Below are positions 1 through 37,511 of a DNA stretch of 40,000 nt, one piece after another. The position numbers and the translations under genes were made by a program. Numbering within the stretch: position 1 is the first letter of the stretch; every line of letters starts with the position of its first letter. Origin of the DNA: Gallionellaceae bacterium (GTDB taxonomy: Bacteria; Pseudomonadota; Gammaproteobacteria; Burkholderiales; Thiobacillaceae); assembly GCA_028714735.1 (NCBI GenBank), contig JAQTLU010000002.1, positions 443,840-483,839 on the forward strand, given 5' to 3'. Under the pieces are notes generated by a model. It was not told the origin of the DNA, ran no database searches, and saw only the letters and a program-made list of their open reading frames with translations.

Positions 1-1337
1 GCGATCACTACGCCCTGCGCTTCCACAGCCGCCCGGAGTTCATCGGCACCCTCTGGGAGGGGGCGTTGGCGCTGGACGAAGACGGGCGCATCCTGGCGGC
101 CAACCGCAGCGCCCTGTTTCAGCTCGGCTACAAGAAACCGGCCGACCTGCTGGGATTGCGGGTGGCGGACCTGTTCAACACCGGCATGGCCGAACTGTTG
201 GGCAAGAAGAACCAGGGCTGGCTCAACCCGGTTCCGCTCTACGAGGCGCGCCAGGGCAACCGCTTCTTCGGCCTGATCCGCCCGCCGGAAACCCAGACTT
301 CCGCCGCACCGGCTGCCGCTGCCCCGGCCTCCGCCCGTCGCGCCCAGCCCTCGCAGGCGGCCCCGGGCGGGCACAAGGTCATCGGTCTGGACGAATTGCA
401 GTTTGGCGACCAGGCCATGGAGTACAACGTGCGTTGCGCCAGGCGCGTGCTGGGCAAGGATATCCCCATGCTGTTGTCGGGCGAGACGGGTACCGGCAAG
501 GAGGTGTTCGCGCTGGCTGTCCATGCCGAGCAGGCCGGCGAGGGGCGTCCCTTCGTCGCGGTGAACTGCGCCTCCATACCGGAGTCGCTGATCGAGAGCG
601 AATTGTTCGGCTACAAATCCGGCGCCTTCACCGGGGCGACCCGCGAGGGGCGGCGCGGCAAGATTCTCCAGGCCAACGGCGGCACCCTGTTCCTGGACGA
701 GATCGGCGATATGCCGATCATGTTGCAGGCCCGTTTGCTGCGGGTGCTGGAAGAGCGGGAAGTGGTTCCGCTGGGCAGTGAAATCCCGGTCAAGGTCGAT
801 ATCAAACTGATCAGCGCCACCCATCGAAACCTGAAGGAACTGGTGGCGGAAGGCCGCTTCCGCGAGGATTTGTACTACCGCCTGCAAGGCATCACCCTGA
901 ACCTGCCGGCCCTGCGCGAGCGACAGGACAAATGCGCCCTGATCCATCACATCCTCAGCCTGGAATGCGAGGGCGGGGAAGAGGTCGAGTTGAGCGAGGG
1001 CGCCCTGCGCAAGCTGGAGGAGTACGCCTGGCCCGGTAACATCCGCCAGTTGCGCAACGTGTTGCGCACCACCCTGGCCTTGCGGGAAGGCCGCGAGATC
1101 ACCATCTGCGATTTGCCCGGGGAGGTCAGCAATCAGGTGCATTCCAGCCATGTGCGCGCCCATGCCGTCGAGGCATCCCTGGGCGCCCTGGAAAGCGCCG
1201 AGCGGGATGCCATCCTGCAGAGCCTGGAAAAATGCCGCTGGAACGTCACCATAGCGGCCAAGCAACTCAAGGTCAGCCGAAACACCCTCTATCGCAAGAT
1301 GAAAAACCTCAATATACGCAGCACCGAGGAGGAATGA
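1..1337 (+). CDS. Sigma-54-dependent transcriptional activator (bEBP, AcoR/NtrC-like), 5' end outside window
   Basis: The reading frame is open from the window edge, upstream of the TTG at 66. It has Walker A GETGTGKE, the sigma-54 contact motif GAFTGA, and a C-terminal Fis-type HTH (AAKQLKVSRNTLYRKMK). An Ala/Pro-rich linker precedes the AAA+ core. Confidence 0.9.
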   Translation, partial: DHYALRFHSRPEFIGTLWEGALALDEDGRILAANRSALFQLGYKKPADLLGLRVADLFNTGMAELLGKKNQGWLNPVPLYEARQGNRFFGLIRPPETQTSAAPAAAAPASARRAQPSQAAPGGHKVIGLDELQFGDQAMEYNVRCARRVLGKDIPMLLSGETGTGKEVFALAVHAEQAGEGRPFVAVNCASIPESLIESELFGYKSGAFTGATREGRRGKILQANGGTLFLDEIGDMPIMLQARLLRVLEEREVVPLGSEIPVKVDIKLISATHRNLKELVAEGRFREDLYYRLQGITLNLPALRERQDKCALIHHILSLECEGGEEVELSEGALRKLEEYAWPGNIRQLRNVLRTTLALREGREITICDLPGEVSNQVHSSHVRAHAVEASLGALESAERDAILQSLEKCRWNVTIAAKQLKVSRNTLYRKMKNLNIRSTEEE

Positions 1338-4335: not shown

Positions 4336-5030
4336 CCGGCTGGCTCGCCAGCATCGTCGATGTCGACGAGGCGAGGCAGGTCCTGGCCGCCGGCGCCGAC
4401 ATCGTCGATGCCAAGAATCCCCATGCCGGCGCCCTGGGCGCCCTCGACCTGGAGGTCGTGGCGGCCATCGTCGCGGCGGTTGCGCAACGGCGGCCGGTCA
4501 GCGCCACCATCGGCGACTTCCCCGACATGCCGGCCGAGGCCGTCACCCGGGCGGTGACAGCCATGGCAGGCACCGGCGTGGATTTCGTGAAGATCGGCCT
4601 GTTCCCGGGCCCGGGCCTGGATCCCTGCCTGCAGGCACTGGCGCCCCTGGCCCGCCGCCAGCGCCTGGTGGCCGTGCTGTTTGCCGACCGGGTGCCTGAT
4701 TTTCGCCTGCCGGCCAGGCTGGCCGGGCTCGGCTTCGCCGGCGTGATGCTGGATACGGCCGACAAGTCCGCAGGCGGCCTGCTGGCGCACCAGTCCCCGG
4801 CCAGGCTGGCGGAATTCGTGGCCTTGGCCCGTCGCTCGGGCCTGCTGTGCGGACTGGCGGGCTCCCTCAAGGTCGCCGATATTCCCCACCTGCTGCCGTT
4901 CGTGCCGGAGTACCTTGGCTTTCGCGGCGCCCTTTGCCATCAGCATGCCCGTACCCGCTCGTTGGATCCGGCTGCCCTGGCCTCGCTTGGCCGGGCCATG
5001 GCGAGCGCGGCGTCGCCGACGGGCGCCTAG
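4332..5030 (+). CDS. mfnB: (5-formylfuran-3-yl)methyl phosphate synthase, MfnB/DUF556 family (methanofuran biosynthesis)
   Basis: The ATG at 4332 overlaps the upstream stop. MTGWLASIVDVDEARQVLAAGADIVDAKNPHAGALGAL matches the MfnB N-terminal signature (..S V .. EA ... GADIID.KNP..GALGA). The earlier part of the 312-aa track ORF is low-complexity overlap. Confidence 0.75.
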   Translation: MTGWLASIVDVDEARQVLAAGADIVDAKNPHAGALGALDLEVVAAIVAAVAQRRPVSATIGDFPDMPAEAVTRAVTAMAGTGVDFVKIGLFPGPGLDPCLQALAPLARRQRLVAVLFADRVPDFRLPARLAGLGFAGVMLDTADKSAGGLLAHQSPARLAEFVALARRSGLLCGLAGSLKVADIPHLLPFVPEYLGFRGALCHQHARTRSLDPAALASLGRAMASAASPTGA

Positions 5031-5620
5031 TCGGCCTTCGCCTTCGCCTTCGCCAGCCAGGCACCCAGCGCAGCCGGGTCGTCATGGCCGAGGATGCCGA
5101 CGGGCCGGCCGAAGGCGGCGGCGAAGCCGGCGAAGGCCGTATCCACCCGGTGCCGATCGGCCGCAGGATCGAAGGCGTGTACGCCGTCGGGGCCGTGCTT
5201 GATCAGGGCCAGGGCGTCGGCGTCGAGGACGCCGGCCAGCCAGGCCGCCAGGCTGTCCGAGGTGACCGACCAGGCCTCCGGTATGTCCGGGGCCTGCAGA
5301 CACATGGCCGCGGGTTGCCAGACCGGCGTCCGTCCCCGCTCCAGGATGGCCGCGATGGTTTGGCTGGAGGCGGCGGGCAGCAGGCCTGGATGCAGGTCGC
5401 ACAAGGCCAGGCCGTATTGCTCCATGGCCAGCAGGGCCATCCTGTGGGCCGTGGCGTCGGAAAAGCCCAGGCGCGCCTGGGTGATCCGCACCGCGTCGGC
5501 ATAGGGGCCGCCGCCGGGGACCACCACCACCTGCCCTCCCGCCCCGGACAGCGCCTCCAGCCAATCGGGCAGGCGCGGGGCGTCGAGCAGGCTGCCGCCC
5601 AGCTTCACGACCCTGAGCAT
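5027..5620 (-). CDS. Amino-acid-kinase-fold protein (aspartate/glutamate/uridylate kinase family), MfnE-like candidate
   Basis: Start at MLRVVKLGGSLL (5620), which is the kinase-fold N-terminal motif. There is a C-terminal AKAKAKAD tail. Its stop shares the tetranucleotide CTAG with the convergent mfnB stop. Confidence 0.7.
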   Translation of the reverse strand: MLRVVKLGGSLLDAPRLPDWLEALSGAGGQVVVVPGGGPYADAVRITQARLGFSDATAHRMALLAMEQYGLALCDLHPGLLPAASSQTIAAILERGRTPVWQPAAMCLQAPDIPEAWSVTSDSLAAWLAGVLDADALALIKHGPDGVHAFDPAADRHRVDTAFAGFAAAFGRPVGILGHDDPAALGAWLAKAKAKAD

Positions 5621-17509: not shown

Positions 17510-17525
17510 AGCAATATCCATGCCA
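17510..17525 (-). promoter_or_regulatory. Sigma-54 (-24/-12) promoter for the mptG-mtdB-…-mch… operon
   Basis: The minus strand reads TGGCAT-GGATA-TTGCT with exact GG-N10-GC spacing. The element ends about 35 nt upstream of the mptG ATG. Confidence 0.75.
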
Positions 17526-17575: not shown

Positions 17576-17594
17576 GCGTGACACTGTGTCACGC
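17576..17594. promoter_or_regulatory. 19-bp perfect palindrome GCGTGACA-CTG-TGTCACGC, a candidate enhancer-binding-protein site (UAS)
   Basis: Perfect 9+1+9 inverted repeat. It is centred about 60 bp upstream of the mptG -24 element and about 110 bp upstream of the fhcB -24 element. The same GTGACA-N3-TGTCAC core recurs at 30804-30818. Confidence 0.65.
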
Positions 17595-17693
17595 CGGGCG
17601 CGCCGGTCTCGGTACAGCGTTCAGCCGGTCCTGGACGGTCGCGGCGGGATGAACTGTTTGATTCGCCGGACAAAAGCGCGGCGCTGGTTTCCG

Positions 17694-17709
17694 TGGCATG
17701 GATCGTGCT
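17694..17709 (+). promoter_or_regulatory. Sigma-54 (-24/-12) promoter for fhcBADC
   Basis: The plus strand reads TGGCAT-GGATC-GTGCT with GG-N10-GC spacing. It shares TGGCATGGAT with the divergent mptG promoter. Confidence 0.7.
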
Positions 17710-17735
17710 CTGAGGCTCCCACCGTATTCACCCGT

Positions 17736-18971
17736 GTGCCTGCCGTGCCCGACTCCTTTTTCAGTTGTCCATTCTGCGGTCTGCTGTGCGATGACCTGCC
17801 CGCCGATGTCGAGCGTATCGGTTGCGCCCGTGCCACCCGGCTCTTTTCCGTACCGGCGCAGGGGCAGTGCCGGGTGTCCGGTCGGCCGGCGGACCCGGCC
17901 GAGGCCCGCCGGGTTGCCGCGGGCATCCTGTCGGGCGCCCGGCGGCCCCTGGTGGCCGGCCTGGCCTGCGACGTGACCGGGCATCGCGCCGCCCTCGACC
18001 TGGCCGAGCGGACCGGCGCCAGGGTGGACCACATGAATGGCCCGGCCCAATTCCGCAACTGGCTGGCGTTCCAGGACGGCGGCTGGATGACCACCACCCT
18101 TTCGGAGGTGCGCAACCGCGCCGATGTCGTCATCCTGGCCGGCACGGTGGCCTCGGCTTTTCCCCGCTTCTTCGAGCGCTGCCTGGCGCCCGAGTCCCAG
18201 TTTGGCGATCTGGCCCGGCGCGTGATCGTCCTGGGCGGGCCGATCTCGCGTCTTCCCGAGCCGTTCGCCGGATCGGCCCTCACCATTCCCGTCCCGGCAA
18301 CCCGCCTGGGCGAACTGTGCGCCGTCCTGCGCGCCCGCCTGACCGGCCGTCCGCTCCCGGTCAGGGAGGTGGCCGGGGTGCCTGCAGCGCAGATCGATGC
18401 CGTGCTGGAAATCCTGCGCAGCGCCCGTTATGGCGTCCTGGCATGGAATGCCGCCGAGCTCGATTTCCCCGGTGCCGAGTTGACCATCCAGGCCATGGTC
18501 GATCTGGTGAAGGACCTCAATCGCGACACGCGCTGGTCCGGGCTGCCGCTGGGCGGCAACGACGGCGATACCACGGCCGCCCAGGTCTGCACCTGGCGCA
18601 CCGGTTATCCGCTGCGCGTGGCCTTCGAGTCCGCCGGCCCGCGCTACGAGCCCCTGCTGTTCGATGCCGCGCGCCTGCTGGCGGCCGGCGAGGCGGACGC
18701 CCTGCTCTGGATCTCCGCGCTCGATCCGGCGCGCGTGCCGCCTGACGCGGCCTGTCCGCGCATCGTCCTGGGGCGTCCGGACATGGTCTTCGAGCACCCG
18801 CCCGAGGTATTCATCCCGGTGGCCGTGCCCGGCGTACACCAGGCCGGCTTCATGCATCGCATGGACGGCGTGGTGGCCCTGCCCCTGAGCGTCCGGGTGG
18901 CCAGCGAACTGCCCAGCGTGGCCCAGGCCATCGCTGCCATTCAGGAGGAGATGAAGCGTGTTGCGGCTTAA
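17736..18971 (+). CDS. fhcB: Formyltransferase/hydrolase complex subunit B (formylmethanofuran dehydrogenase subunit B homolog)
   Basis: FwdB-like, with an N-terminal SCPFCGLLCDD Cys cluster. The GTG start at 17736 (alternative 17745) is chosen because the predicted sigma-54 promoter at 17694-17709 lies downstream of the ATG at 17649 and the track start at 17520. No convincing SD was found, so the start is uncertain. Confidence 0.8.
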   Translation: MPAVPDSFFSCPFCGLLCDDLPADVERIGCARATRLFSVPAQGQCRVSGRPADPAEARRVAAGILSGARRPLVAGLACDVTGHRAALDLAERTGARVDHMNGPAQFRNWLAFQDGGWMTTTLSEVRNRADVVILAGTVASAFPRFFERCLAPESQFGDLARRVIVLGGPISRLPEPFAGSALTIPVPATRLGELCAVLRARLTGRPLPVREVAGVPAAQIDAVLEILRSARYGVLAWNAAELDFPGAELTIQAMVDLVKDLNRDTRWSGLPLGGNDGDTTAAQVCTWRTGYPLRVAFESAGPRYEPLLFDAARLLAAGEADALLWISALDPARVPPDAACPRIVLGRPDMVFEHPPEVFIPVAVPGVHQAGFMHRMDGVVALPLSVRVASELPSVAQAIAAIQEEMKRVAA

Positions 18972-22858: not shown

Positions 22859-23680
22859 ATGTTGCGCTGCGGCCGATTCCGCTTCGACCTGACCCGTCCC
22901 CTGGTGATGGGTATCGTCAATGCCACGCCGGATTCCTTTTCCGATGGCGGTCGCCATGCCACTGCCGAGCGCGCCATCGAGCACGGCCTGCGCTTGCGCC
23001 AGGAGGGGGCGGACATCCTCGACGTCGGCGGCGAATCCACCCGTCCCGGCGCCACGCCGGTCGGGGAGGATGAGGAACTGGCACGGGTGTTGCCGGTGCT
23101 GGCCGGCCTGCATGATTGCGGCGCCGCCCTGTCGATCGACACCATGAAGCCGCGCGTCATGGCGGCCGCCCTGGCGGCCGGAGCGGACATGATCAACGAC
23201 GTGAACGCCCTGCGTGCCGAGGCCGCCCTGGCGGCCGTGTCAGGCTCGGATTGCGGCATCTGCCTGATGCACATGCAGGGCACGTCGCAGACCATGCAGT
23301 TGGCGCCCGACTACGACGACGTGGTGGCCGAGGTTGCCGGCTTCCTGCACGAACGCATGAACGCCTTGCGCCAGGCCGGCATCGCCGGGGAGCGGATACT
23401 GATCGACCCCGGTTTCGGCTTCGGCAAGACGCCGGCGCACAACGTGGCGCTGTTCCGCGCGCTGCCCCATTTCGCCAAGCTGGCGCCGGTGCTGGTCGGC
23501 ATGTCGCGCAAGTCCCTGTTCGGCATACTCACCGGCAGGCCGGTGACGGAGCGGACCATCGCCAGCGTCGCCGCCGCCATGCTGGCGGCCATGCAGGGTG
23601 CCGCGATCCTGCGCGTGCACGACGTGGCCGCCACCATCGATGCTCTCAAGGTCCTGGAAACCCTGGGCCATGACCAATGA
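22859..23680 (+). CDS. folP: Dihydropteroate synthase
   Basis: GIVNATPDSFSDGG, DVGGESTRPGA, INDV and GFGFGKT are canonical DHPS motifs. The start at 22859 comes just after the upstream stop. Confidence 0.92.
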   Translation: MLRCGRFRFDLTRPLVMGIVNATPDSFSDGGRHATAERAIEHGLRLRQEGADILDVGGESTRPGATPVGEDEELARVLPVLAGLHDCGAALSIDTMKPRVMAAALAAGADMINDVNALRAEAALAAVSGSDCGICLMHMQGTSQTMQLAPDYDDVVAEVAGFLHERMNALRQAGIAGERILIDPGFGFGKTPAHNVALFRALPHFAKLAPVLVGMSRKSLFGILTGRPVTERTIASVAAAMLAAMQGAAILRVHDVAATIDALKVLETLGHDQ

Positions 23681-23703
23681 TTTTTTCCGAGAGGAGGATC
23701 GAC

Positions 23704-24138
23704 ATGCAGATTGCAAGGTTCCTGTTCGCCGCCGGCCTAGTGGTCTCCAACCTGGCGCCGGCCGCCGGCATCAAGGTTGAAAACGCCTGGTTGATGGCCA
23801 CCCTGCCGGGCCAGAAGGTGGCGGGCGGGTTCATGGATATCACCGCCGAGCAGGACATGGCGCTGGTGGGCGCCAGCAGCCCGGTGGCCCAGGCCGTGGA
23901 ACTGCATCGCATGCGCATGGCCGACGGCGGCATGGAAGTGCGCGCGTTCAAGTCCCTCCGCCTGCCCAAGGGCAAGACCGTCAACCTGGCGCCCAGCGGC
24001 CTGCATGCCATGCTGATCGGACTCAAGGCGCCGATCAAGGCCGGCGATCTGGTGCCCATGTCCCTGGCATTCGACGACGGTCACGGCGGGACCGCCAGCC
24101 TGGACGTGACCCTCAAGGCGGCAACGCGGCTCTATTGA
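23704..24138 (+). CDS. Periplasmic copper chaperone PCu(A)C (DUF461)
   Basis: The ATG at 23704 is preceded by GAGAGGAGGA. There is a signal-peptide-like N-terminus, and the Cu(I) motif pattern H-x-M…M…GGLHAML is present. Confidence 0.8.
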   Translation: MQIARFLFAAGLVVSNLAPAAGIKVENAWLMATLPGQKVAGGFMDITAEQDMALVGASSPVAQAVELHRMRMADGGMEVRAFKSLRLPKGKTVNLAPSGLHAMLIGLKAPIKAGDLVPMSLAFDDGHGGTASLDVTLKAATRLY

Positions 24139-28659: not shown

Positions 28660-30218
28660 GCCGTTTTCTCCACGGGCCTGGGCGCCAGGCCGAAGTCTTC
28701 CGGATAGTTGTCGAGGGCAGACAGGACCGGGTAGGGGGTCATGCCGCCCATGGCGCACAGCGAGCCCTCCAGCATGGTCTGGCAGAGGTCGCGCAACAGG
28801 GTGTCGTCGTTGCTCCGCTGCGGGCGCCGGGCCAGCATGGCGTCCAGCAATTCCACGCCGCGCACCGAGCCGATGCGGCAGGGCGTGCATTTGCCGCAGG
28901 ATTCCTGGGCACAGAAGGCCATGGCGTAGCGGGCCATCCCGGCCATGTCCACCGTATCGTCGAAGGCGACGATGCCGCCATGGCCGACCGTGGCCCCGAC
29001 GGCGGCAAAGGCTTCGTAATCCAGAGGCAGGTCGAAGCGGGACTCGGGCAGGTAGGCGCCCAGTGGTCCGCCCACCTGTACTGCGCGGATGGGCCGGCCG
29101 CTGGCCGAGCCGCCGCCGTAGTCATGCAGGAGTTCCCTCAGGCTGACGCCGAACGGGGCCTCCACCAAGCCAGGCCGCTTCAGGTTGCCGGCCAGTTGGA
29201 ACGGCAGGGTGCCCCTGGAGCGACCGCAGCCGTAGGCCGCGTAGGCCGCACCGCCATGGGCCAGAATCCAGGGCACGCTGGCCAGGGTGATGACATTGTT
29301 CACCACCGTGGGTTGCCCGAACAGGCCCTGCAACGCCGGCAGGGGCGGTTTGGCGCGCACCAGACCGCGCTTGCCCTCGATGCTTTCCAGCAGGGCGGTT
29401 TCCTCGCCGCATACGTAGGCGCCGGCGCCCTTGAACAGATGCAGATCGAAGCGGCGACCGCTGCCCAGCACGTTATCGCCCAGCAGCCCCTCCCGGGTGG
29501 CCCCGGCAATGGCCGCCTGCAAGATTTTCCAGGCATCCGGGTATTCGGAACGCAGATAGATGTAGCCGGTGTCGGCGCCCACGGCCAGGCCGCAGATGAG
29601 CATGCCTTCGATCAGGCTGTAGGGGTCGCCTTCCATCAGCATGCGGTCGGAGAAGGTGCCGGAGTCGCCTTCATCCGCGTTGCAGACGACGTATTTTCGG
29701 TCGCTGCCGGCATTCAGCACGGTGCGCCACTTGATCCCGGTGGGAAACCCCGCACCGCCGCGGCCGCGCAGGCCGGCGCTGTCGATGGTGTCGATGATGG
29801 CCTCCGGGGCCATGGCCAGGGCCTTGTGCAGGCCCGTCAGGCCGCCGTTGCTGCGGTAGGCCTCCAGTGATACCGGGTCGTCAAGCCCGAGGCGGGCAAA
29901 GACCAGGCGCGTCTGCCGCGCCAGTTGCGGGATGCTGTCGGTGGGGCCCAGGCACAGCGGATGCGTTCCGCCAGTCAGCCAGCCGGCTGCAAACAGGTCG
30001 GGCACATCCTCCGGTGCGACCGGCCCGTAGGCGATGCGGGTGCCGTTCGCTGCCACTTCGATCATGGGTTCGAGCCAGAAGAGACCGCGCGAGCCGTTCC
30101 GCACGATGGCCACTTCCTGGCCCAGGCGGCGGGCTTCCGCCGCCACGGCTTCAGCGGTCAGGTCGGCGCCGACGGAAACGGCGGCCGCATCGCCGGGGAT
30201 ATATAGGCGGGCGGTCAT
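28656..30218 (-). CDS. fdsB: NAD-dependent formate dehydrogenase beta subunit (NuoF-like, FMN/NAD binding)
   Basis: Start at MTARLYIPGD (30218) overlaps the fdsG stop. It has the NuoF motifs GLRGRGGAGFPTG and ESCGKCTPCR. Confidence 0.92.
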   Translation of the reverse strand: MTARLYIPGDAAAVSVGADLTAEAVAAEARRLGQEVAIVRNGSRGLFWLEPMIEVAANGTRIAYGPVAPEDVPDLFAAGWLTGGTHPLCLGPTDSIPQLARQTRLVFARLGLDDPVSLEAYRSNGGLTGLHKALAMAPEAIIDTIDSAGLRGRGGAGFPTGIKWRTVLNAGSDRKYVVCNADEGDSGTFSDRMLMEGDPYSLIEGMLICGLAVGADTGYIYLRSEYPDAWKILQAAIAGATREGLLGDNVLGSGRRFDLHLFKGAGAYVCGEETALLESIEGKRGLVRAKPPLPALQGLFGQPTVVNNVITLASVPWILAHGGAAYAAYGCGRSRGTLPFQLAGNLKRPGLVEAPFGVSLRELLHDYGGGSASGRPIRAVQVGGPLGAYLPESRFDLPLDYEAFAAVGATVGHGGIVAFDDTVDMAGMARYAMAFCAQESCGKCTPCRIGSVRGVELLDAMLARRPQRSNDDTLLRDLCQTMLEGSLCAMGGMTPYPVLSALDNYPEDFGLAPRPVEKTA

Positions 30219-30655
30219 GATTGATCGATCTCGTCCAGCAGGGTATCGAGCCGTTCCGCGCTGACCCGGCCTAGCAGCTTGCCATTCACCATCATGGCCG
30301 GAGAGCAGGCGCAGTTGCCCAGGCAATAGGCGGCTTCCAGGGTGTAGGCGCCGTCCCGGGTGGTTTCTCCGAAGGCGATGCCAAGTCGCTGGCTGGCATG
30401 TCCGGCCAGCGCGTCCGCGCCCATCGCCTGGCACGATTCGGCGCGGCAGATCAGGAGCTGGCTGCGTCCCGGTGGGGTGCGCCGGAAGTCGTGATAGAAG
30501 CCGATCACGCCGATGATGTCCGCCTGCGACAGGTTGTGGATCTTGGCCAGTTGGGCGATGGCATGGTCCGGGATGTAGCCATGCTCCTCTTGCAGCCGGT
30601 GCAGGGCCGGCAGCAACCCGGATGGGTCGGCGCCAGGATGTGTCTGTTCGGGCAT
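30215..30655 (-). CDS. fdsG: NAD-dependent formate dehydrogenase gamma subunit (NuoE-like 2Fe-2S)
   Basis: Start at MPEQTHP (30655). It has the NuoE-type pattern LLPALHRLQEEHGYIP…CRAESC…CLGNCACSP. The upstream in-frame extension would run through the predicted promoter. Confidence 0.88.
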   Translation of the reverse strand: MPEQTHPGADPSGLLPALHRLQEEHGYIPDHAIAQLAKIHNLSQADIIGVIGFYHDFRRTPPGRSQLLICRAESCQAMGADALAGHASQRLGIAFGETTRDGAYTLEAAYCLGNCACSPAMMVNGKLLGRVSAERLDTLLDEIDQS

Positions 30656-30689
30656 GAAAATAATGTTTTGATAAGGAGATGCCAGTTGC

Positions 30690-30705
30690 AGCAAGTCGCA
30701 TGCCA
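30690..30705 (-). promoter_or_regulatory. Sigma-54 (-24/-12) promoter for fdsGBA-fdhD-fdsD-folK
   Basis: The minus strand reads TGGCAT-GCGAC-TTGCT with exact GG-N10-GC spacing. The element ends about 35 nt upstream of the fdsG ATG. Confidence 0.75.
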
Positions 30706-30745
30706 GCGTGATTCCGGCCCGGGCGTAAGCGTATTTGTACTTATA

Positions 30746-30758
30746 AATCAATGCTTTG
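30746..30758 (+). promoter_or_regulatory. IHF-like site (AATCAATGCTTTG matches WATCAANNNNTTR)
   Basis: It lies between the fds sigma-54 promoter (30690-30705) and the palindrome at 30804-30818, inside an AT-rich tract. It overlaps a TTGATCAA palindrome, which also gives an ATCAA-N4-TTG match on the other strand. Confidence 0.45.
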
Positions 30759-30803
30759 ATCAAGCCTTGTCGGCGACTGTCCGGCTTTCGACAGGCTGCC
30801 GGC

Positions 30804-30818
30804 GTGACAGTCTGTCAC
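30804..30818. promoter_or_regulatory. Perfect palindrome GTGACA-GTC-TGTCAC, a candidate enhancer-binding-protein site shared by the fds and mtoX promoters
   Basis: It has the same half-sites and spacing as the 17576-17594 palindrome, and is also preceded by GC. It is centred about 107 bp from the fds -24 element and about 143 bp from the mtoX -24 element. Confidence 0.65.
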
Positions 30819-30850
30819 CCTGTTCGGGTGGACGATCGGGACCAAGGACT

Positions 30851-30865
30851 GCGACAAAATGTCAC
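30851..30865. promoter_or_regulatory. Near-palindromic third copy GCGACA-AAA-TGTCAC, plus a downstream half-site CAGTCTGTCAC at 30877-30887
   Basis: There is one mismatch to GTGACA-N3-TGTCAC, and it is followed by GC as in the 17.5-kb copy. The 11-mer CAGTCTGTCAC at 30877-30887 is identical to 30808-30818. Both lie 70-100 bp upstream of the mtoX -24 element. Confidence 0.5.
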
Positions 30866-30952
30866 GCCTGAAAAATCAGTCTGTCACGAGAAGGGGGAGT
30901 GCGTTTTTTGGTGAAATACCGTATGTCATTGATATGTAACTATTAATTGTGT

Positions 30953-30968
30953 TGGCACGGTTGCTGCT
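30953..30968 (+). promoter_or_regulatory. Sigma-54 (-24/-12) promoter for the mtoX operon
   Basis: The plus strand reads TGGCAC-GGTTG-CTGCT with GG-N10-GC spacing, about 100 nt upstream of the mtoX ATG. It is preceded by an AT-rich tract (ATATGTAACTATTAATTGTG). Confidence 0.7.
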
Positions 30969-31065
30969 GTAGTCCCCGGGTAGCTTTGCGCTGCCGGCGT
31001 CGTTTAGGAGCCCCGCTTGCGTGGCTGCTGTGCGCTTGATTCTGTGGATGACTCAGGAGACTAAT

Positions 31066-32454
31066 ATGACTAAATGCAATAAACGCAATTCCATCAAGAC
31101 CCTGGCGGCGGCAATTTCCGCCGCGGTGGCTTTGGCCGTGACGGCCCTTCCTGCCACCAGTATTGCCGACGAAACCAGTTGTTCCCCCTTCACCCCCCTC
31201 ATCAAGGGACAGGAAGACTTCGTCTATGTCTGGACCCTGGGCGTGGAAGGGCTTGGCGACGGTTCCGACAAGTTGGTGACCGTGGATGTGAACCCCAAGT
31301 CGAAGAATTACGGCAAGGTCATCAACAGCCTGTCGGTAGGCGGCCGCAACGAAGCACACCACATCGGCCTGTCCGATGATCGTCGCTACGTCTGGGGTGG
31401 CGGTCTGGACAGCAGTCATATCTTCATCTTTGATGTCGCCACCGACCCGGCCAAGCCGAAACTGGTCAAGGTCATCAAGGACTTCGTAGAGAAATCCGGC
31501 GGTATCGTCGGTCCCCATACCTTTTACGCCGCCCCCGGCCGCATGATCATCACCGGCCTGTCCAACAACCAGGACCACGGCGGTGTGACGGCCCATGTCA
31601 TCTACAACAACAAGGGCGACTACATCAAGACCGTGCAAGTCCCCACCGGCGAGGTCGGCGGGGCGATGGGCGATGGCTACAACTATGACGTCGCCATCAA
31701 CCCGCGCAAGAACGCGATGCTGTCCACGTCGTTCACCGGCTGGAACAATTACATGATGGACCTGGGCAAGATGGTGAAGGATCCGGAGGCGATGAAGCAC
31801 TTCGGCAACACCTCCGTCATGTGGGACTTCAAGACCATGAAGCCCATCAAGGTGTTCAGTACCCCGGGCGCGCCCCTGGAGGCGCGCTGGAACTGGGGCA
31901 AGGGGGACGACTTCGCTGTGACCACCACGGCGCTGACCTCCAACATCTGGGTGTTCAAGCAGGATGACAAGAAGGAATGGCAGGCCCATAACGTGGGGAC
32001 CATCGGCAATCCGGCCGATATCCCGCTGCCGGTCGATATCTCCATGGCCGCGGACGGCAAGGCCATGTGGATCAATACCTTCATGGATGGAACCACGCGC
32101 TTCTGGGACTTTTCCAACCCGATGAAGCCGAAGGAAGTCTATACGAAGAAGATCGGCTCCCAGGTCAATATGGTGTCCCAAAGCTATGACGGCAAGCGCG
32201 TCTACTACACCTCTTCGCTGCTCGGCAACTGGGACAAGAAGGGCAAGGACGACGAGCAGTTCCTGAAGATGTACAACTGGGACGGCAAGGACCTGAAGCT
32301 CGGCTTCGAGATCGATTTCTACAAGGAAAAGCTCGGTCGCGCCCACCATATGAAGTTCCAGGCTCGCAACATGAATACGCTGCGGCCGCTACATGCTGAA
32401 GCGGACAGGCTGGACAGCGTGCGTCTGGCTAGCACCGAAACGCCTGCCAAGTAA
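31066..32454 (+). CDS. mtoX: Selenium-binding-protein (SBP56) family protein, methanethiol oxidase type
   Basis: 462 aa. The ATG is preceded by CAGGAG. A Sec-type signal peptide is present (MTKCNKRNSIKTLAAAISAAVALAVTALPATSIA/DE). SBP56-like beta-propeller sequence runs throughout. It is followed by SCO1/SenC and MauG-like genes, the context reported for mtoX in Hyphomicrobium sp. VS. Confidence 0.85.
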   Translation: MTKCNKRNSIKTLAAAISAAVALAVTALPATSIADETSCSPFTPLIKGQEDFVYVWTLGVEGLGDGSDKLVTVDVNPKSKNYGKVINSLSVGGRNEAHHIGLSDDRRYVWGGGLDSSHIFIFDVATDPAKPKLVKVIKDFVEKSGGIVGPHTFYAAPGRMIITGLSNNQDHGGVTAHVIYNNKGDYIKTVQVPTGEVGGAMGDGYNYDVAINPRKNAMLSTSFTGWNNYMMDLGKMVKDPEAMKHFGNTSVMWDFKTMKPIKVFSTPGAPLEARWNWGKGDDFAVTTTALTSNIWVFKQDDKKEWQAHNVGTIGNPADIPLPVDISMAADGKAMWINTFMDGTTRFWDFSNPMKPKEVYTKKIGSQVNMVSQSYDGKRVYYTSSLLGNWDKKGKDDEQFLKMYNWDGKDLKLGFEIDFYKEKLGRAHHMKFQARNMNTLRPLHAEADRLDSVRLASTETPAK

Positions 32455-32458
32455 TCTG

Positions 32459-33208
32459 ATGGTCCTTCCTCGCAACGGCCTCTTGAAGGCTTTACACCTC
32501 CCCTTCTGGGGGGGTGTTTTTTTTCTCCTGCTGCAGTCTTTCGGGATTCACTGGGCCCATGCCGCGTCACCCGACAACAGCCTGAAAGCAATCGAAACCG
32601 CCGATACGGTCGTGCCGGATTATGTGCCGCCCAGACCGGGCAGCTATGAGCTCATGCGGATCATGACGGCTGCCGATGGCGAGGTGCTGGATGTGGATGG
32701 CAAGCCGAGGCACCTGTCCGAATTCACGGGCGGCAAGGTGACACTGCTGTCATTCATCTATTCCACCTGTGCCGATCCCAACGGCTGCCCCTATGCCTAC
32801 CAGGTTTTCCATAACCTGAAAAACCGCCTGGCAAAAGAGCCCAGACTGCATGGCAAGGTGCGCCTGGTAAGCCTCTCTTTCGATCCGAAACGGGATACCC
32901 CCGAGATGCTGAGGCTGTATGCCGGCGACAACGCGCTGCCCAATCAGCCCGTACAATGGGATTTTCTGACCACGGCCTCCTACAAGGAATTGATGCCCAT
33001 CCTGGACAGTTTTGGCCAGGATGTTTTTATCGAACTGGACCCGGTCACGCAACAGCCTTTGGGTACCCTGAACCATGTGCTCAAGGTCTTCCTCATCGAT
33101 CGTGAGCGCGTGGTGCGCGAGATCTATACAACCGTCTATCTCCAGCCCGATGTGACCTACAACGACATTCTCACCCTCCTGATCGAACAGGGAATCGAAC
33201 TGCCATGA
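32459..33208 (+). CDS. SCO1/SenC-family copper chaperone (thioredoxin fold) with atypical Cys spacing
   Basis: Start at MVLPRNG, 4 nt after the mtoX stop, with an N-terminal hydrophobic anchor. The motif is FIYSTCADPNGCPY (C-x5-C where SCO1 normally has CxxxC), and a downstream NHVLKVFLID histidine block is present. Confidence 0.8.
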   Translation: MVLPRNGLLKALHLPFWGGVFFLLLQSFGIHWAHAASPDNSLKAIETADTVVPDYVPPRPGSYELMRIMTAADGEVLDVDGKPRHLSEFTGGKVTLLSFIYSTCADPNGCPYAYQVFHNLKNRLAKEPRLHGKVRLVSLSFDPKRDTPEMLRLYAGDNALPNQPVQWDFLTTASYKELMPILDSFGQDVFIELDPVTQQPLGTLNHVLKVFLIDRERVVREIYTTVYLQPDVTYNDILTLLIEQGIELP

Positions 33209-34401
33209 TCTTTTCCCGGGCCTTGTTCTGGCTGCCCATCGGCGTTTTCTATGCCTCATGGGCTTTTGCCCTGGGTACGCCGGTCAACCTCGAGGTGCCC
33301 CTGGGATTGCCGCCTCTGACGGTGCCTGCGGTCAACCCCCTGACCAAGGAGAAGATCGACCTGGGCCGCCGTTTGTTCATGGACCGGCGTCTGTCCCACA
33401 ACAACACCATGTCCTGCGCGATGTGCCATGTGCCCGAGCAGGGCTTCACCTCCCATGAACTGGGTACGGCCATCGGACTGGAAGGTCGCAGCCTGCGGCG
33501 CAACTCCCCGACGATTTACAACGTGGGCTACCAACGCTCCCTGTTCCACGAAGGGCGCGAGCCGCATCTGGAAGACCAGGTCTGGGGACCCTTGCTGACC
33601 AAGGTGGAAATGGACATGCCGTCGATCGGCTATGTGGTCGAGAAGGTACGGCAATTGAAGGAGTACGAAGGTCTGTTCGAAGCCGCTTTCGGCGGGCCGG
33701 TCAACGCCGAGCGCATCGGCCAGGCCCTGGCCAGTTGGGAGCGCACCATGATTTCCGGCAACTCCCGATTCGACCGCTGGTTCTACGGCGGCCAGAGGGA
33801 TGTGCTGAATGCGGAAGAGCAATTGGGTTTTCAGGTCTTCACTGGCAAGGGGCACTGTTCCACCTGCCACCTGATCGGGGAGAAATCCGCCTTGTTCACC
33901 GATCATAAATTCCACAACACCGGATTGGGCTGGGAACGCACCATGTTCCCCGAGCGCAACAACTACCGGGTACAACTCGCCCCCGGCATCTTCGTCCAGG
34001 TGATGGGCTCACTCCTGAAGTCATTCGAGCCGCCCCAGGCCGACGTCGGGCGCTATGAGGTCACCATCGATACCAAGGACCGCTGGGCCTACAAGACCCC
34101 CGTCCTGCGCAACGTGGCGGTCACCCAGCCTTATATGCACGACGGCTCCCTGTCGACGCTGGAGGATGTCGTCGAGTTCTACGACAAGGGCGGTATCGAC
34201 AACGACAACAAGTCGCCACTGCTGCAACCGCTCAAGCTGAGCAGCGCGGAAAAAGCCGCGCTGGTGGCCTTCATGAAGACCCTGACCGGGGATAACCTGG
34301 CGGCGTTGACGCACGACGCGCGGATGGCACCGGCTTCGCCGCCCAGTCTGGAGCAAGACCCCTCCGACGCCTATATGGATGCCATCGCCGTCTATCCCTG
34401 A
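33205..34401 (+). CDS. Di-haem cytochrome c peroxidase / MauG-family protein
   Basis: 398 aa with a signal-like N-terminus and two haem c motifs, CAMCH and CSTCH. The CCP/MauG-type sequence includes …PVLRNVAVTQPYMHDGS…. There is an ATGA overlap with the SCO1 gene. Confidence 0.88.
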   Translation: MIFSRALFWLPIGVFYASWAFALGTPVNLEVPLGLPPLTVPAVNPLTKEKIDLGRRLFMDRRLSHNNTMSCAMCHVPEQGFTSHELGTAIGLEGRSLRRNSPTIYNVGYQRSLFHEGREPHLEDQVWGPLLTKVEMDMPSIGYVVEKVRQLKEYEGLFEAAFGGPVNAERIGQALASWERTMISGNSRFDRWFYGGQRDVLNAEEQLGFQVFTGKGHCSTCHLIGEKSALFTDHKFHNTGLGWERTMFPERNNYRVQLAPGIFVQVMGSLLKSFEPPQADVGRYEVTIDTKDRWAYKTPVLRNVAVTQPYMHDGSLSTLEDVVEFYDKGGIDNDNKSPLLQPLKLSSAEKAALVAFMKTLTGDNLAALTHDARMAPASPPSLEQDPSDAYMDAIAVYP

Positions 34402-36583: not shown

Positions 36584-37183
36584 ATGAGTCATGTGCTTTC
36601 ACCGCGTCCGGATACCCGTTTCCTGGTCCTGGACACGGCGCTGACATTGTTCACCGAACGTGGTTTTTTCAGCACGTCGGTGCACGATATCAGTCGCGAG
36701 GCAGGGGTGAGCATCGGTTCCATCTACCATCACTTCGGCGACAAGGAAGGCGTCGCAAGCGCGCTGTACGAGCAACTCGGAGCGCGCATGGAGGGGCTCA
36801 TCAGCGAGATCCGGCGTCGTCACACTACTGCCCATGACCAGGCGATGGAACTGGTCTCCCGATTGTTCCAGCTGACCGAGTCCGAGCCTCGTGCCATGGA
36901 ATTCATGCTCTACGCCAAGCATCGTGAGTTCCTCCCCCGCCAGGGGCCGGTCTGCTCCTCGCGTCCGTTCGTGTTGATGCGGGAAATCGTCAGCATGGGC
37001 ATGGAACGTGGCGAGATCCGTCCGATGGACACGCTGATCGCTTCCGCGAGCTTGTTCGGCGGCCCATTGCGTATGATCACCGGTCGTCTGGACGGCCTGG
37101 TGGACAAGCCTTTGCCGGAATGTCTCGACGCAGTCTGGGCATGTGCCTGGCGCGCCGTCGCAATGGCGGCGCCGGCGCCATGA
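36584..37183 (+). CDS. TetR/AcrR-family transcriptional regulator
   Basis: 199 aa with an N-terminal TetR HTH (LDTALTLFTERGFFSTSVHDISREAGVSIGSIYHHFGDKEG). Confidence 0.9.
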   Translation: MSHVLSPRPDTRFLVLDTALTLFTERGFFSTSVHDISREAGVSIGSIYHHFGDKEGVASALYEQLGARMEGLISEIRRRHTTAHDQAMELVSRLFQLTESEPRAMEFMLYAKHREFLPRQGPVCSSRPFVLMREIVSMGMERGEIRPMDTLIASASLFGGPLRMITGRLDGLVDKPLPECLDAVWACAWRAVAMAAPAP

Positions 37184-37292: not shown

Positions 37293-37511
37293 GTGCGACA
37301 TGACGTCACGCCACTTGTCGAAAGGTATTGTTTCGGTTGTGTGCTCTACCCGCCCAACCTGCCTCCCTACGCCTATTCAGAGGAAGACTGGGCCTTGCTG
37401 CAAGGCATGGCTTGCTCTTTGGAACACAAGCCGGGCATGCCGGACTGCCTGGTGAGCCGCAAGACCAGTTGCAGTCTGGTGGAATTGGCGCCATCCCCCT
37501 GCACCTGCTAA
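37293..37511 (+). CDS. Hypothetical small Cys-rich protein (72 aa)
   Basis: The GTG start has an AGGAG SD 7 nt upstream. There are seven Cys residues, including CFGC and a C-terminal SCSLVELAPSPCTC. Third-position GC bias by eye is consistent with coding. I recognise no family. Confidence 0.35.
   Translation: MRHDVTPLVERYCFGCVLYPPNLPPYAYSEEDWALLQGMACSLEHKPGMPDCLVSRKTSCSLVELAPSPCTC

Follow-up and report, generated by a model that had tools for sequence, protein, structure and literature searches.

A conserved divergent region between fdsG and mtoX with predicted sigma-54 promoters and a palindrome that recurs in a Thiobacillaceae one-carbon oxidation island

The 40,000-nucleotide stretch analysed here (the window; contig JAQTLU010000002.1, positions 443,840 to 483,839, assembly GCA_028714735.1, 67 % GC) is one large one-carbon (C1) oxidation island linked to tetrahydromethanopterin (H4MPT) and methanofuran. 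Within it, a 410-bp spacer separates two divergent operons, headed by the formate dehydrogenase gene fdsG and the methanethiol oxidase gene mtoX. The calls made for these flanking genes in the initial annotation are borne out by Pfam, with FdsG, FdsB, FdsA and FdhD in that order on the minus side and, on the plus side, MtoX as an SBP56 protein, after which come SCO1, MauG and a Fae-like protein. The island also contains cofactor genes (PTPS, DUF6513, DUF447, MfnB, pabB-like and ATP-grasp genes), fae, mch, mtdB, an mptG-like kinase gene, fhcBADC, folP-like/PCuAC, folK, an mfnA-like gene and tetR. The FhcD protein is 84-89 % identical to those of Thiobacillus, Parasulfuritortus and other Thiobacillaceae genomes, and a conspecific contig from a metagenome-assembled genome (MAG) labelled Gallionellaceae bacterium matches the first 3,085 bases of the window at 99.4 %.

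Re-reading of positions 30500-31250 confirmed every coordinate in the annotated list of spacer elements, which comprises two outward-facing -24/-12 boxes, three copies of a dyad of decreasing quality between them and a box resembling the consensus of integration host factor (IHF) (Table 1). Each -24/-12 box differs at one position from TGGCAC-N5-TTGCW and has its GG and GC 10 bp apart. With transcription starts placed about 12 nt downstream of the GC, the predicted fds start lies at about 30678 (leader of 23 nt) and the predicted mtoX start at about 30980 (leader of about 86 nt). Measured between these coordinates, the distance to the predicted fds start is about 133 bp for the centre of site 1 and about 180 bp for that of site 2, and the distance to the predicted mtoX start is about 169, 122 and 100 bp for the centres of sites 1, 2 and 3, a placement that fits the zone of upstream activating sequences of bacterial enhancer-binding proteins (bEBPs), approximately 80-200 bp upstream of the -24/-12 element. 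The ATG taken for fdsG fits the length of its homologues, most of which have 146 residues, and the CATG at this start is invariant in the alignment of related spacers described below (A2). A search of the spacer for sigma-70-type promoters found none, and they were rejected as an alternative; the Rfam search of the spacer returned no element. A weak terminator-like hairpin with a T-rich tail is present in the mtoX leader at 31018-31035 (plus strand), 30 nt before the ATG, and is poorly conserved in A2.

Table 1. Window coordinates of the two divergent regions, their flanking genes and the candidate regulator gene
Feature	Position	Strand	Remarks
Candidate bEBP gene, MimR_N-GAF-(PAS)-AAA+(GAFTGA)-HTH_8	3..1337	+	C-terminal two-thirds, gene truncated by window start; Pfam
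Predicted sigma-54 box TGGCAT-GGATA-TTGCT	17510-17525	-	For mptG-like-mtdB-orf5-mch operon
Perfect dyad GTGACA-CTG-TGTCAC	17578-17592		26.2 bits
Extra half-site GGTACA	17611..17616	+	GTGACA in most relatives; begins 33 bp after dyad start (alignment A1)
Predicted sigma-54 box TGGCAT-GGATC-GTGCT	17694-17709	+	For fhcBADC
fdsG	30215..30655	-	Pfam 2Fe-2S_thioredx; ATG at 30655; heads fdsGBA-fdhD-fdsD-folK
Predicted fdsG sigma-54 -24/-12 box TGGCAT-GCGAC-TTGCT (TGGCATGCGACTTGCT)	30690-30705	-	35 nt from fdsG ATG
IHF-like box AATCAATGCTTTG	30746-30758	+	Exact match to WATCAANNNNTTR; between fds promoter and site 1
Site 1, perfect dyad GTGACA-GTC-TGTCAC (GTGACAGTCTGTCAC)	30804-30818		Proposed bEBP upstream activating sequence; 24.8 bits
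Site 2, GCGACA-AAA-TGTCAC (GCGACAAAATGTCAC)	30851-30865		One mismatch; centre 47 bp from site 1; 23.1 bits
Site 3, weak half-site CAGTCTGTCAC	30877-30887	+	4.0 bits when scored as full dyad
TTGAT box (reverse of ATCAA)	30929..30933		About 20 nt upstream of mtoX -24 box
Predicted mtoX sigma-54 -24/-12 box TGGCAC-GGTTG-CTGCT (TGGCACGGTTGCTGCT)	30953-30968	+	98 nt from mtoX ATG 31066
mtoX (SBP56 methanethiol oxidase)	31066..32454	+	Pfam; heads mtoX-SCO1-mauG-fae-like; gene order conserved

The recurrence of the palindrome in two divergent regions had been considered unlikely to arise by chance, and the counts agree: the exact 6-N3-6 dyad is seen twice, compared with 0.0011-0.0012 expected per window, and both copies sit in divergent intergenic DNA between outward-facing sigma-54-like boxes. 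A weight-matrix scan of the window finds three sites at 23-26 bits, all in these two regions, and a next best match at 6.3 bits, whereas the best of 200 Markov-1 random sequences scores 21.6 bits; the matrix was built from orthologous sites that include those of the window, so that these scores are partly circular, a limit that does not apply to the exact-match count. Of the nine TGTCAC hexamers in the window, six fall in the same two regions. The IHF consensus matches twice in the window (0.13 expected), both times in the fdsG-mtoX spacer, the second exact match (TATCAAAACATTA) lying at 30661-30673 on the minus strand within the predicted fdsG leader. Sigma-54-like boxes with up to two mismatches are not enriched across the window (25 found, 21.8 expected); their counts are therefore uninformative, and individual boxes gain their credibility from where they lie and from how well they are conserved.

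Within 10 kb, the 80 FhcD-anchored loci contain neither fds nor mtoX, and relatives of the spacer (region 2) were therefore sought separately, by an MtoX search of metagenome contigs and an FdsG search. The same layout, with fdsGBA divergent from mtoX-SCO1-mauG-fae-like, is present in four contigs (L087, L094, L095 and L101), which together with the window form alignment A2. The six elements of the initial annotation were fixed before A2 was made, and the TTGAT box and the mtoX ribosome-binding site were defined after it had been viewed. Across the five contigs, the elements stand out clearly, with invariant positions making up 78 of 103 (76 %) in the named elements versus 41 of 307 (13 %) elsewhere (Fisher p ~1e-31). 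The fdsG box is invariant at 12 of 16 positions and the mtoX box at 11 of 16, including GG and GC in both; the corresponding values are 14 of 15 for site 1, 12 of 15 for site 2 and 9 of 11 for the site 3 half-site. The GCGACA and TGTCAC halves of site 2, including the "mismatched" C, are constant in all five contigs, and the centre-to-centre distance between sites 1 and 2 is 46-47 bp throughout. The mtoX ribosome-binding site is conserved and the TTGAT box invariant, the latter being seen also in alignment A3, and this box may be the IHF core for the mtoX promoter. The intergenic DNA around the elements is 36-52 % identical to the window, with a background identity of 36-47 % in pairwise comparison, and BLASTN against L094, L095 and L101 aligns the flanking genes at 70-86 % and finds no match in the spacer. 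Conservation over the five contigs thus backs the annotated structure, with its two -24/-12 boxes, perfect palindrome, one-mismatch copy and half-site. Of the IHF claim, the exact match between the fds promoter and the palindrome stands, but its conservation is partial: 6 of 13 positions are invariant (AA-CA----TT), and the relatives read AAACAG...TTA with one or two mismatches.

The second palindrome-bearing region assumed by the initial annotation is also real and lies at 17.5 kb (region 1), where a perfect dyad separates the predicted promoters of the mptG-like and fhcB operons. In nine of nine Thiobacillaceae loci, the exact palindrome occurs a single time in the approximately 20 kb of each locus, always in the same place upstream of fhcB, with spacers that vary among them (GAC, CAG, GAG, CTG, ATC and CTC). 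In the alignment of this region (A1), the minus-strand box AGCAA-N5-ATGCCA is invariant, and an AATCA box, the dyad, the extra GTGACA half-site, a TTGATTCGCC box and the plus-strand box TGGCAY-N5-(C/G)TGC are conserved. According to A1, fhcB starts at GTG 17745 (window 17734-17747) rather than at the in-frame GTG 17736 or at 17520, the start of the longest open reading frame, so that the predicted leader is about 25 nt long. The transcription starts predicted for region 1 lie at about 17498 on the minus strand and about 17721 on the plus strand. Pooling of 30 sites yields yGTGACA-n-W-n-TGTCACr, in which the GACA/TGTC core is invariant, the 3-bp spacer is variable and the central base is A or T without exception, a pattern that fits a dimeric helix-turn-helix (HTH) protein.

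The control elements persist where the two operons have been separated. In loci with mtoX and without fds (L083-L086, L088-L090 and L102), a single NGACA-N3-TGTCAC site, the TTGAT box and a GGCAC-N5-TTGC box are kept, even at 39 % GC in L102; the box of L088-L090 reads CGGCAC-GCGTA-TTGC. By the strict pattern, 12 related loci have the mtoX sigma-54 box, at 113-154 nt before the gene. Conversely, site and box are kept upstream of fdsG without mtoX in a complete 3.3-Mb genome (L162), a Thiobacillus genome (L164) and T. denitrificans DSM 12475 (L166); in the last of these, the two sites present are also spaced by 47 bp, and the -24/-12 box is 63 nt upstream of the fdsG ATG. The dyads hold orthologous positions across genomes of 39-72 % GC.

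Related elements are found beyond the Thiobacillaceae. Strict -24/-12 boxes are present upstream of fhcB in Ca. Thiodiazotropha (L017, L023 and L026), Sedimenticolaceae (L013), Paraburkholderia (L030 and L035) and two MAGs of other gammaproteobacterial lineages (L032 and L066), and are found in none of the loci labelled alphaproteobacterial. Upstream of fhcB, at a distance of approximately 200-330 bp, the gammaproteobacterial loci (L013, L017, L023, L026, L032 and L066) share a conserved TGTGTCAC half-site. It usually stands within GTGAAC-caatg-TGTCAC, which is the Thiobacillaceae half-site with a 5-bp spacer. The two Paraburkholderia loci have GTGACA-CTG-TGTGAC (GTGACActgTGTGAC) at about -150 of fhcB. 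That TGTCAC is shared by sulfur oxidisers and methylotrophs of both the betaproteobacteria and the gammaproteobacteria is a hint of an old origin for the putative pairing of regulator and half-site.

A candidate for the protein that binds these sites is encoded at the left edge of the window by a bEBP gene that the initial annotation did not name. The truncated copy has Pfam PAS, AAA+ and HTH_8 domains with an intact GAFTGA loop, and its full-length homologues (635-661 residues) show MimR_N, GAF, AAA+ and HTH_8 in precomputed Pfam assignments, which corresponds to the AcoR/MimR-type architecture. The source annotations of the homologues read "sigma-54-dependent Fis family" or "regulator of acetoin/glycerol metabolism". 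No NCBIfam equivalog cutoff is reached (PrdR, 317 bits versus a cutoff of 795; DhaR, 296 versus 551; FhlA, 198 versus 830), and these models align only over the AAA+/HTH core, the same part that is covered by solved structures. The HTH is highly conserved among the Thiobacillaceae orthologues. The gene always precedes PTPS/flavoprotein/DUF6513/DUF447/MfnB, even in Pelomicrobium, where the protein is 59 % identical, and in Thiobacillus genomes it lies directly downstream of fdsGBACD-folK; it is the only regulator gene consistently linked to these operons.

Upstream of the bEBP gene in relatives, a conserved minus-strand -24/-12 box is directed at an operon with an AhpC/SCO1-like gene and a GTP cyclohydrolase gene (GCHY-1), and a conserved TGG(C/T)(T/G)C-GGAT(A/T)-TTGCT box stands directly before the regulator ATG. 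In the conspecific contig L161, the interval 4994-5351 contains a minus-strand sigma-54 box and a dyad with one mismatch (GTGACAGAATGTCCC), and the probable bEBP ATG is preceded at 18 nt by a sigma-54-like box (TGGCTCGGATATTGCT). This arrangement suggests that the bEBP may regulate its own gene and control the AhpC/SCO1-like and GCHY-1 operon as a further target. The tally is thereby brought to three divergent control regions with up to six promoters. The earlier prediction that one regulator co-controls the cofactor and pathway genes gains a plausible protein in this bEBP, whose gene lies with a site copy beside fds and cofactor genes in relatives.

Judged from comparative sequence evidence, the fdsG-mtoX spacer is a real and conserved control region with predicted sigma-54 promoters in both directions, and the 15-bp palindrome repeated in it most probably serves to bind an uncharacterised activator whose gene belongs to the same island. 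We consider it quite probable that a single bEBP, acting through the dyads at sigma-54 promoters, governs one regulon for cofactor synthesis and formaldehyde oxidation together with formate dehydrogenase and methanethiol oxidase. The sigma-54 holoenzyme requires a bEBP bound upstream. In the proposed mechanism, sigma-54 (RpoN) RNA polymerase would occupy both outward -24/-12 boxes, unable to open the DNA unaided, while bEBP dimers would bind the yGTGACA-nWn-TGTCACr dyads, namely the two strong sites 47 bp apart and the weak half-site. This assignment to the bEBP is made because no other conserved dyad is evident 87-180 bp upstream of the four predicted starts (or in the 80-200 bp upstream zone as a whole) and because only the bEBP is consistently linked to the operons. 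On receipt of its signal, the bEBP would form an ATPase ring and reach the polymerase by DNA looping, possibly with IHF bending the DNA at the AAWCAR-N4-TTR box and at TTGAT, and would fire both operons, fdsGBA-fdhD-fdsD-folK on the minus strand and mtoX-SCO1-mauG-fae-like on the plus strand. The same bEBP and site would drive the mptG-like-mtdB-mch and fhcBADC promoters of region 1 and, in relatives, also the AhpC/SCO1-like-GTP cyclohydrolase operon and probably the regulator gene.

As to the signal, our guess is formaldehyde or a closely related C1 compound; formaldehyde is preferred as the product of MtoX (PMC5739008) and as the compound that the other members of the proposed regulon consume. 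A stronger version, in which the bEBP would be the direct sensor of formaldehyde (or methanethiol or formate) and the master activator of cofactor biosynthesis, the H4MPT pathway, Fhc, the NAD-linked formate dehydrogenase and methanethiol oxidase with its copper chaperones, is tentative and at present rather doubtful. The copper-handling PCuAC and SCO1 genes together with mauG (23677-24138, 32393-33208 and 33205-34401) lie inside operons predicted to be under this control, which fits MtoX as a copper enzyme (PMC5739008).

Several observations weigh against a single regulon controlled by the island bEBP from these sites. An obvious Shine-Dalgarno sequence is missing from the 23-nt leader predicted for fdsG, and the 47-bp spacing of sites 1 and 2 corresponds to approximately 4.5 helical turns, unlike the same-face spacing typical of cooperating NtrC sites. 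The loci with the closest MtoX homologues (L081 and L082, 77-79 % identical) have neither dyad nor sigma-54 box upstream of mtoX, which implies that control of mtoX by this system is lineage-specific and that the control module has been swapped independently of the enzyme. The dyad beside the bEBP gene is degenerate, with a right half of TGTCCC, TGTGCC or TGTACC. At the Pelomicrobium bEBP locus (L168), no dyad occurs within 10 kb and the sigma-54 boxes are not informative, so that this locus has no bearing on covariation between HTH and site. The link between regulator and site derives from adjacency and shared distribution rather than from whole-genome correlation.

One alternative is that the sigma-54 promoters are real and the palindrome is bound by another factor, such as a different bEBP encoded elsewhere, or a repressor or anti-activator that modulates the promoters. 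The protein-site link is indirect, the Pelomicrobium orthologue comes without a site in the 22 kb sampled, the GTGA...TCAC core is loosely like CRP-family half-sites, and a TetR-family gene with a two-mismatch dyad copy behind it lies 5.5 kb downstream. However, sites positioned 87-180 bp upstream of the predicted starts occupy the territory of an activator and do not cover the promoters, and the bEBP gene, with its own copy of the site, is the sole regulator gene consistently linked to these operons. The spacing GTGA-N7-TCAC differs from the N6 of CRP, and a CRP/FNR operator (TGTGA-N6-TCACA, with even symmetry) was rejected since the axis here falls on a base. Binding by another factor is accordingly considered unlikely, though it is the most serious competitor of the island bEBP. 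The TetR-family gene (36584-37183, plus strand) ends the gene string on the mtoX side, and the dyad copy (GCGACATGACGTCAC, 37295-37309), which has no conserved counterpart in other loci, falls within the 500-bp gap that follows the gene. A TetR operator was rejected because every other motif-keeping locus is without a TetR homologue and because the 37295 copy, at only 6.3 bits, is below the random maximum.

It is less probable still that the sites serve one promoter of each divergent pair and that the other -24/-12 match is non-functional or replaced by an unrecognised promoter. The chance frequency of sigma-54-like boxes across the window, the fdsG leader without a clear ribosome-binding site and the CTGCT of the mtoX box in place of TTGCT are compatible with this, but both boxes are conserved in the five contigs, each promoter retains its own box and site where the partner operon is absent, and the spacer yields no sigma-70-type promoter. 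That the palindromes are chance or structural repeats (such as repetitive extragenic palindromic elements or hairpins) of no regulatory role is regarded as extremely improbable. Short palindromes are common in GC-rich intergenic DNA, yet two are found here where about 0.001 are expected, and they keep orthologous positions at widely different GC contents while their spacers vary. The dyads lie upstream of both predicted starts and would not be transcribed as hairpins, and for this reason, together with the negative Rfam result, an RNA element or attenuator was rejected.

The architecture is that of a textbook bEBP/sigma-54 module; its value lies in the regulon that is defined and in a candidate C1 sensor. 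Full-text literature searches yielded no description of the regulon, the site or the regulator, and in the searchable literature no account was found of the regulation of the H4MPT formaldehyde-oxidation module outside alphaproteobacterial methylotrophs, nor of a sigma-54-type formaldehyde-responsive activator. The regulation of methanethiol oxidase expression is listed among the questions still to be addressed by Eyice et al. 2017 (PMC5739008). For Thiobacillus-type degraders of dimethylsulfide and methanethiol, the present results propose a wiring diagram in which one activator and a 15-bp operator would serve at least four, and probably six, sigma-54 promoters, and would couple cofactor supply with the oxidation of formaldehyde, formate and methanethiol. 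They also put forward an operator, candidate but well defined, for an AcoR-type bEBP. Biosensors have few C1-responsive regulators to draw on (PMC6540204), and the activator and its promoters form a candidate pair for this use. If the bEBP does sense formaldehyde, methanethiol or formate directly, it would be a C1 sensor of a new kind for which promoter and operator are already to hand.

Among known systems, those closest to the present one are the FhlA formate regulon, the AcoR-type regulators, NtrC and NorR, and the IclR-type regulator of Roseobacters. In E. coli, FhlA acts on fdhF and on the divergent hyc and hyp operons, which have activating sites in their shared spacer and an IHF site between them. 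The proposed regulon resembles this in combining a GAF-containing bEBP with sigma-54 promoters of formate dehydrogenase and of a divergent operon pair with an IHF-like site between. FhlA is a formate-dependent sigma-54 activator (PMC6540204), and its inducer is thus a C1 compound, the same class as is guessed for the island bEBP. Unlike FhlA, the island bEBP is not an equivalog and has an N-terminus of MimR_N and one GAF domain rather than the FhlA sensory domain; the formate dehydrogenase is of the NAD-linked Fds type, the site sequence differs, and the proposed regulon adds H4MPT/methanofuran genes and methanethiol oxidase.

The MimR_N and GAF domains place the protein in the same domain family as AcoR, MimR and DhaR, from which it differs in that its predicted targets belong to C1 and organosulfur oxidation rather than to the metabolism of acetoin, acetone or dihydroxyacetone, and in that it reaches no curated equivalog. 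Activity of the P. putida promoter PacoX depends on RpoN, AcoR and IHF, and acoR and the operon it controls are divergently arranged (PMC10107126). Because that paper describes the binding site of AcoR in P. putida as unknown, the site motifs are not comparable.

Dyads of similar size, several per promoter, with strong and weak sites approximately 100-150 bp upstream, are shared with the NtrC and NorR systems. The NtrC dyad, as at glnAp2, spans 17 bp (TGCACC-N5-GGTGCA). The present sites differ from it in half-site sequence and in the 46-47 bp between the strong sites, compared with the ~3-turn spacing of NtrC, and the island bEBP is a one-component sensor whereas NtrC is a response regulator. 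NorR needs three enhancer sites in the divergent norR-norVW spacer (PMC2831303). The mtoX-SCO1-mauG unit itself is shared with Roseobacters, where a gene for an IclR-family regulator lies directly upstream of mtoX and where, in Ruegeria pomeroyi, transcription of the unit is enhanced by methanethiol (PMC5739008). The same unit is thus combined there with another regulator class and promoter type, whereas the Thiobacillaceae-type loci have the predicted sigma-54/bEBP module and no IclR gene.

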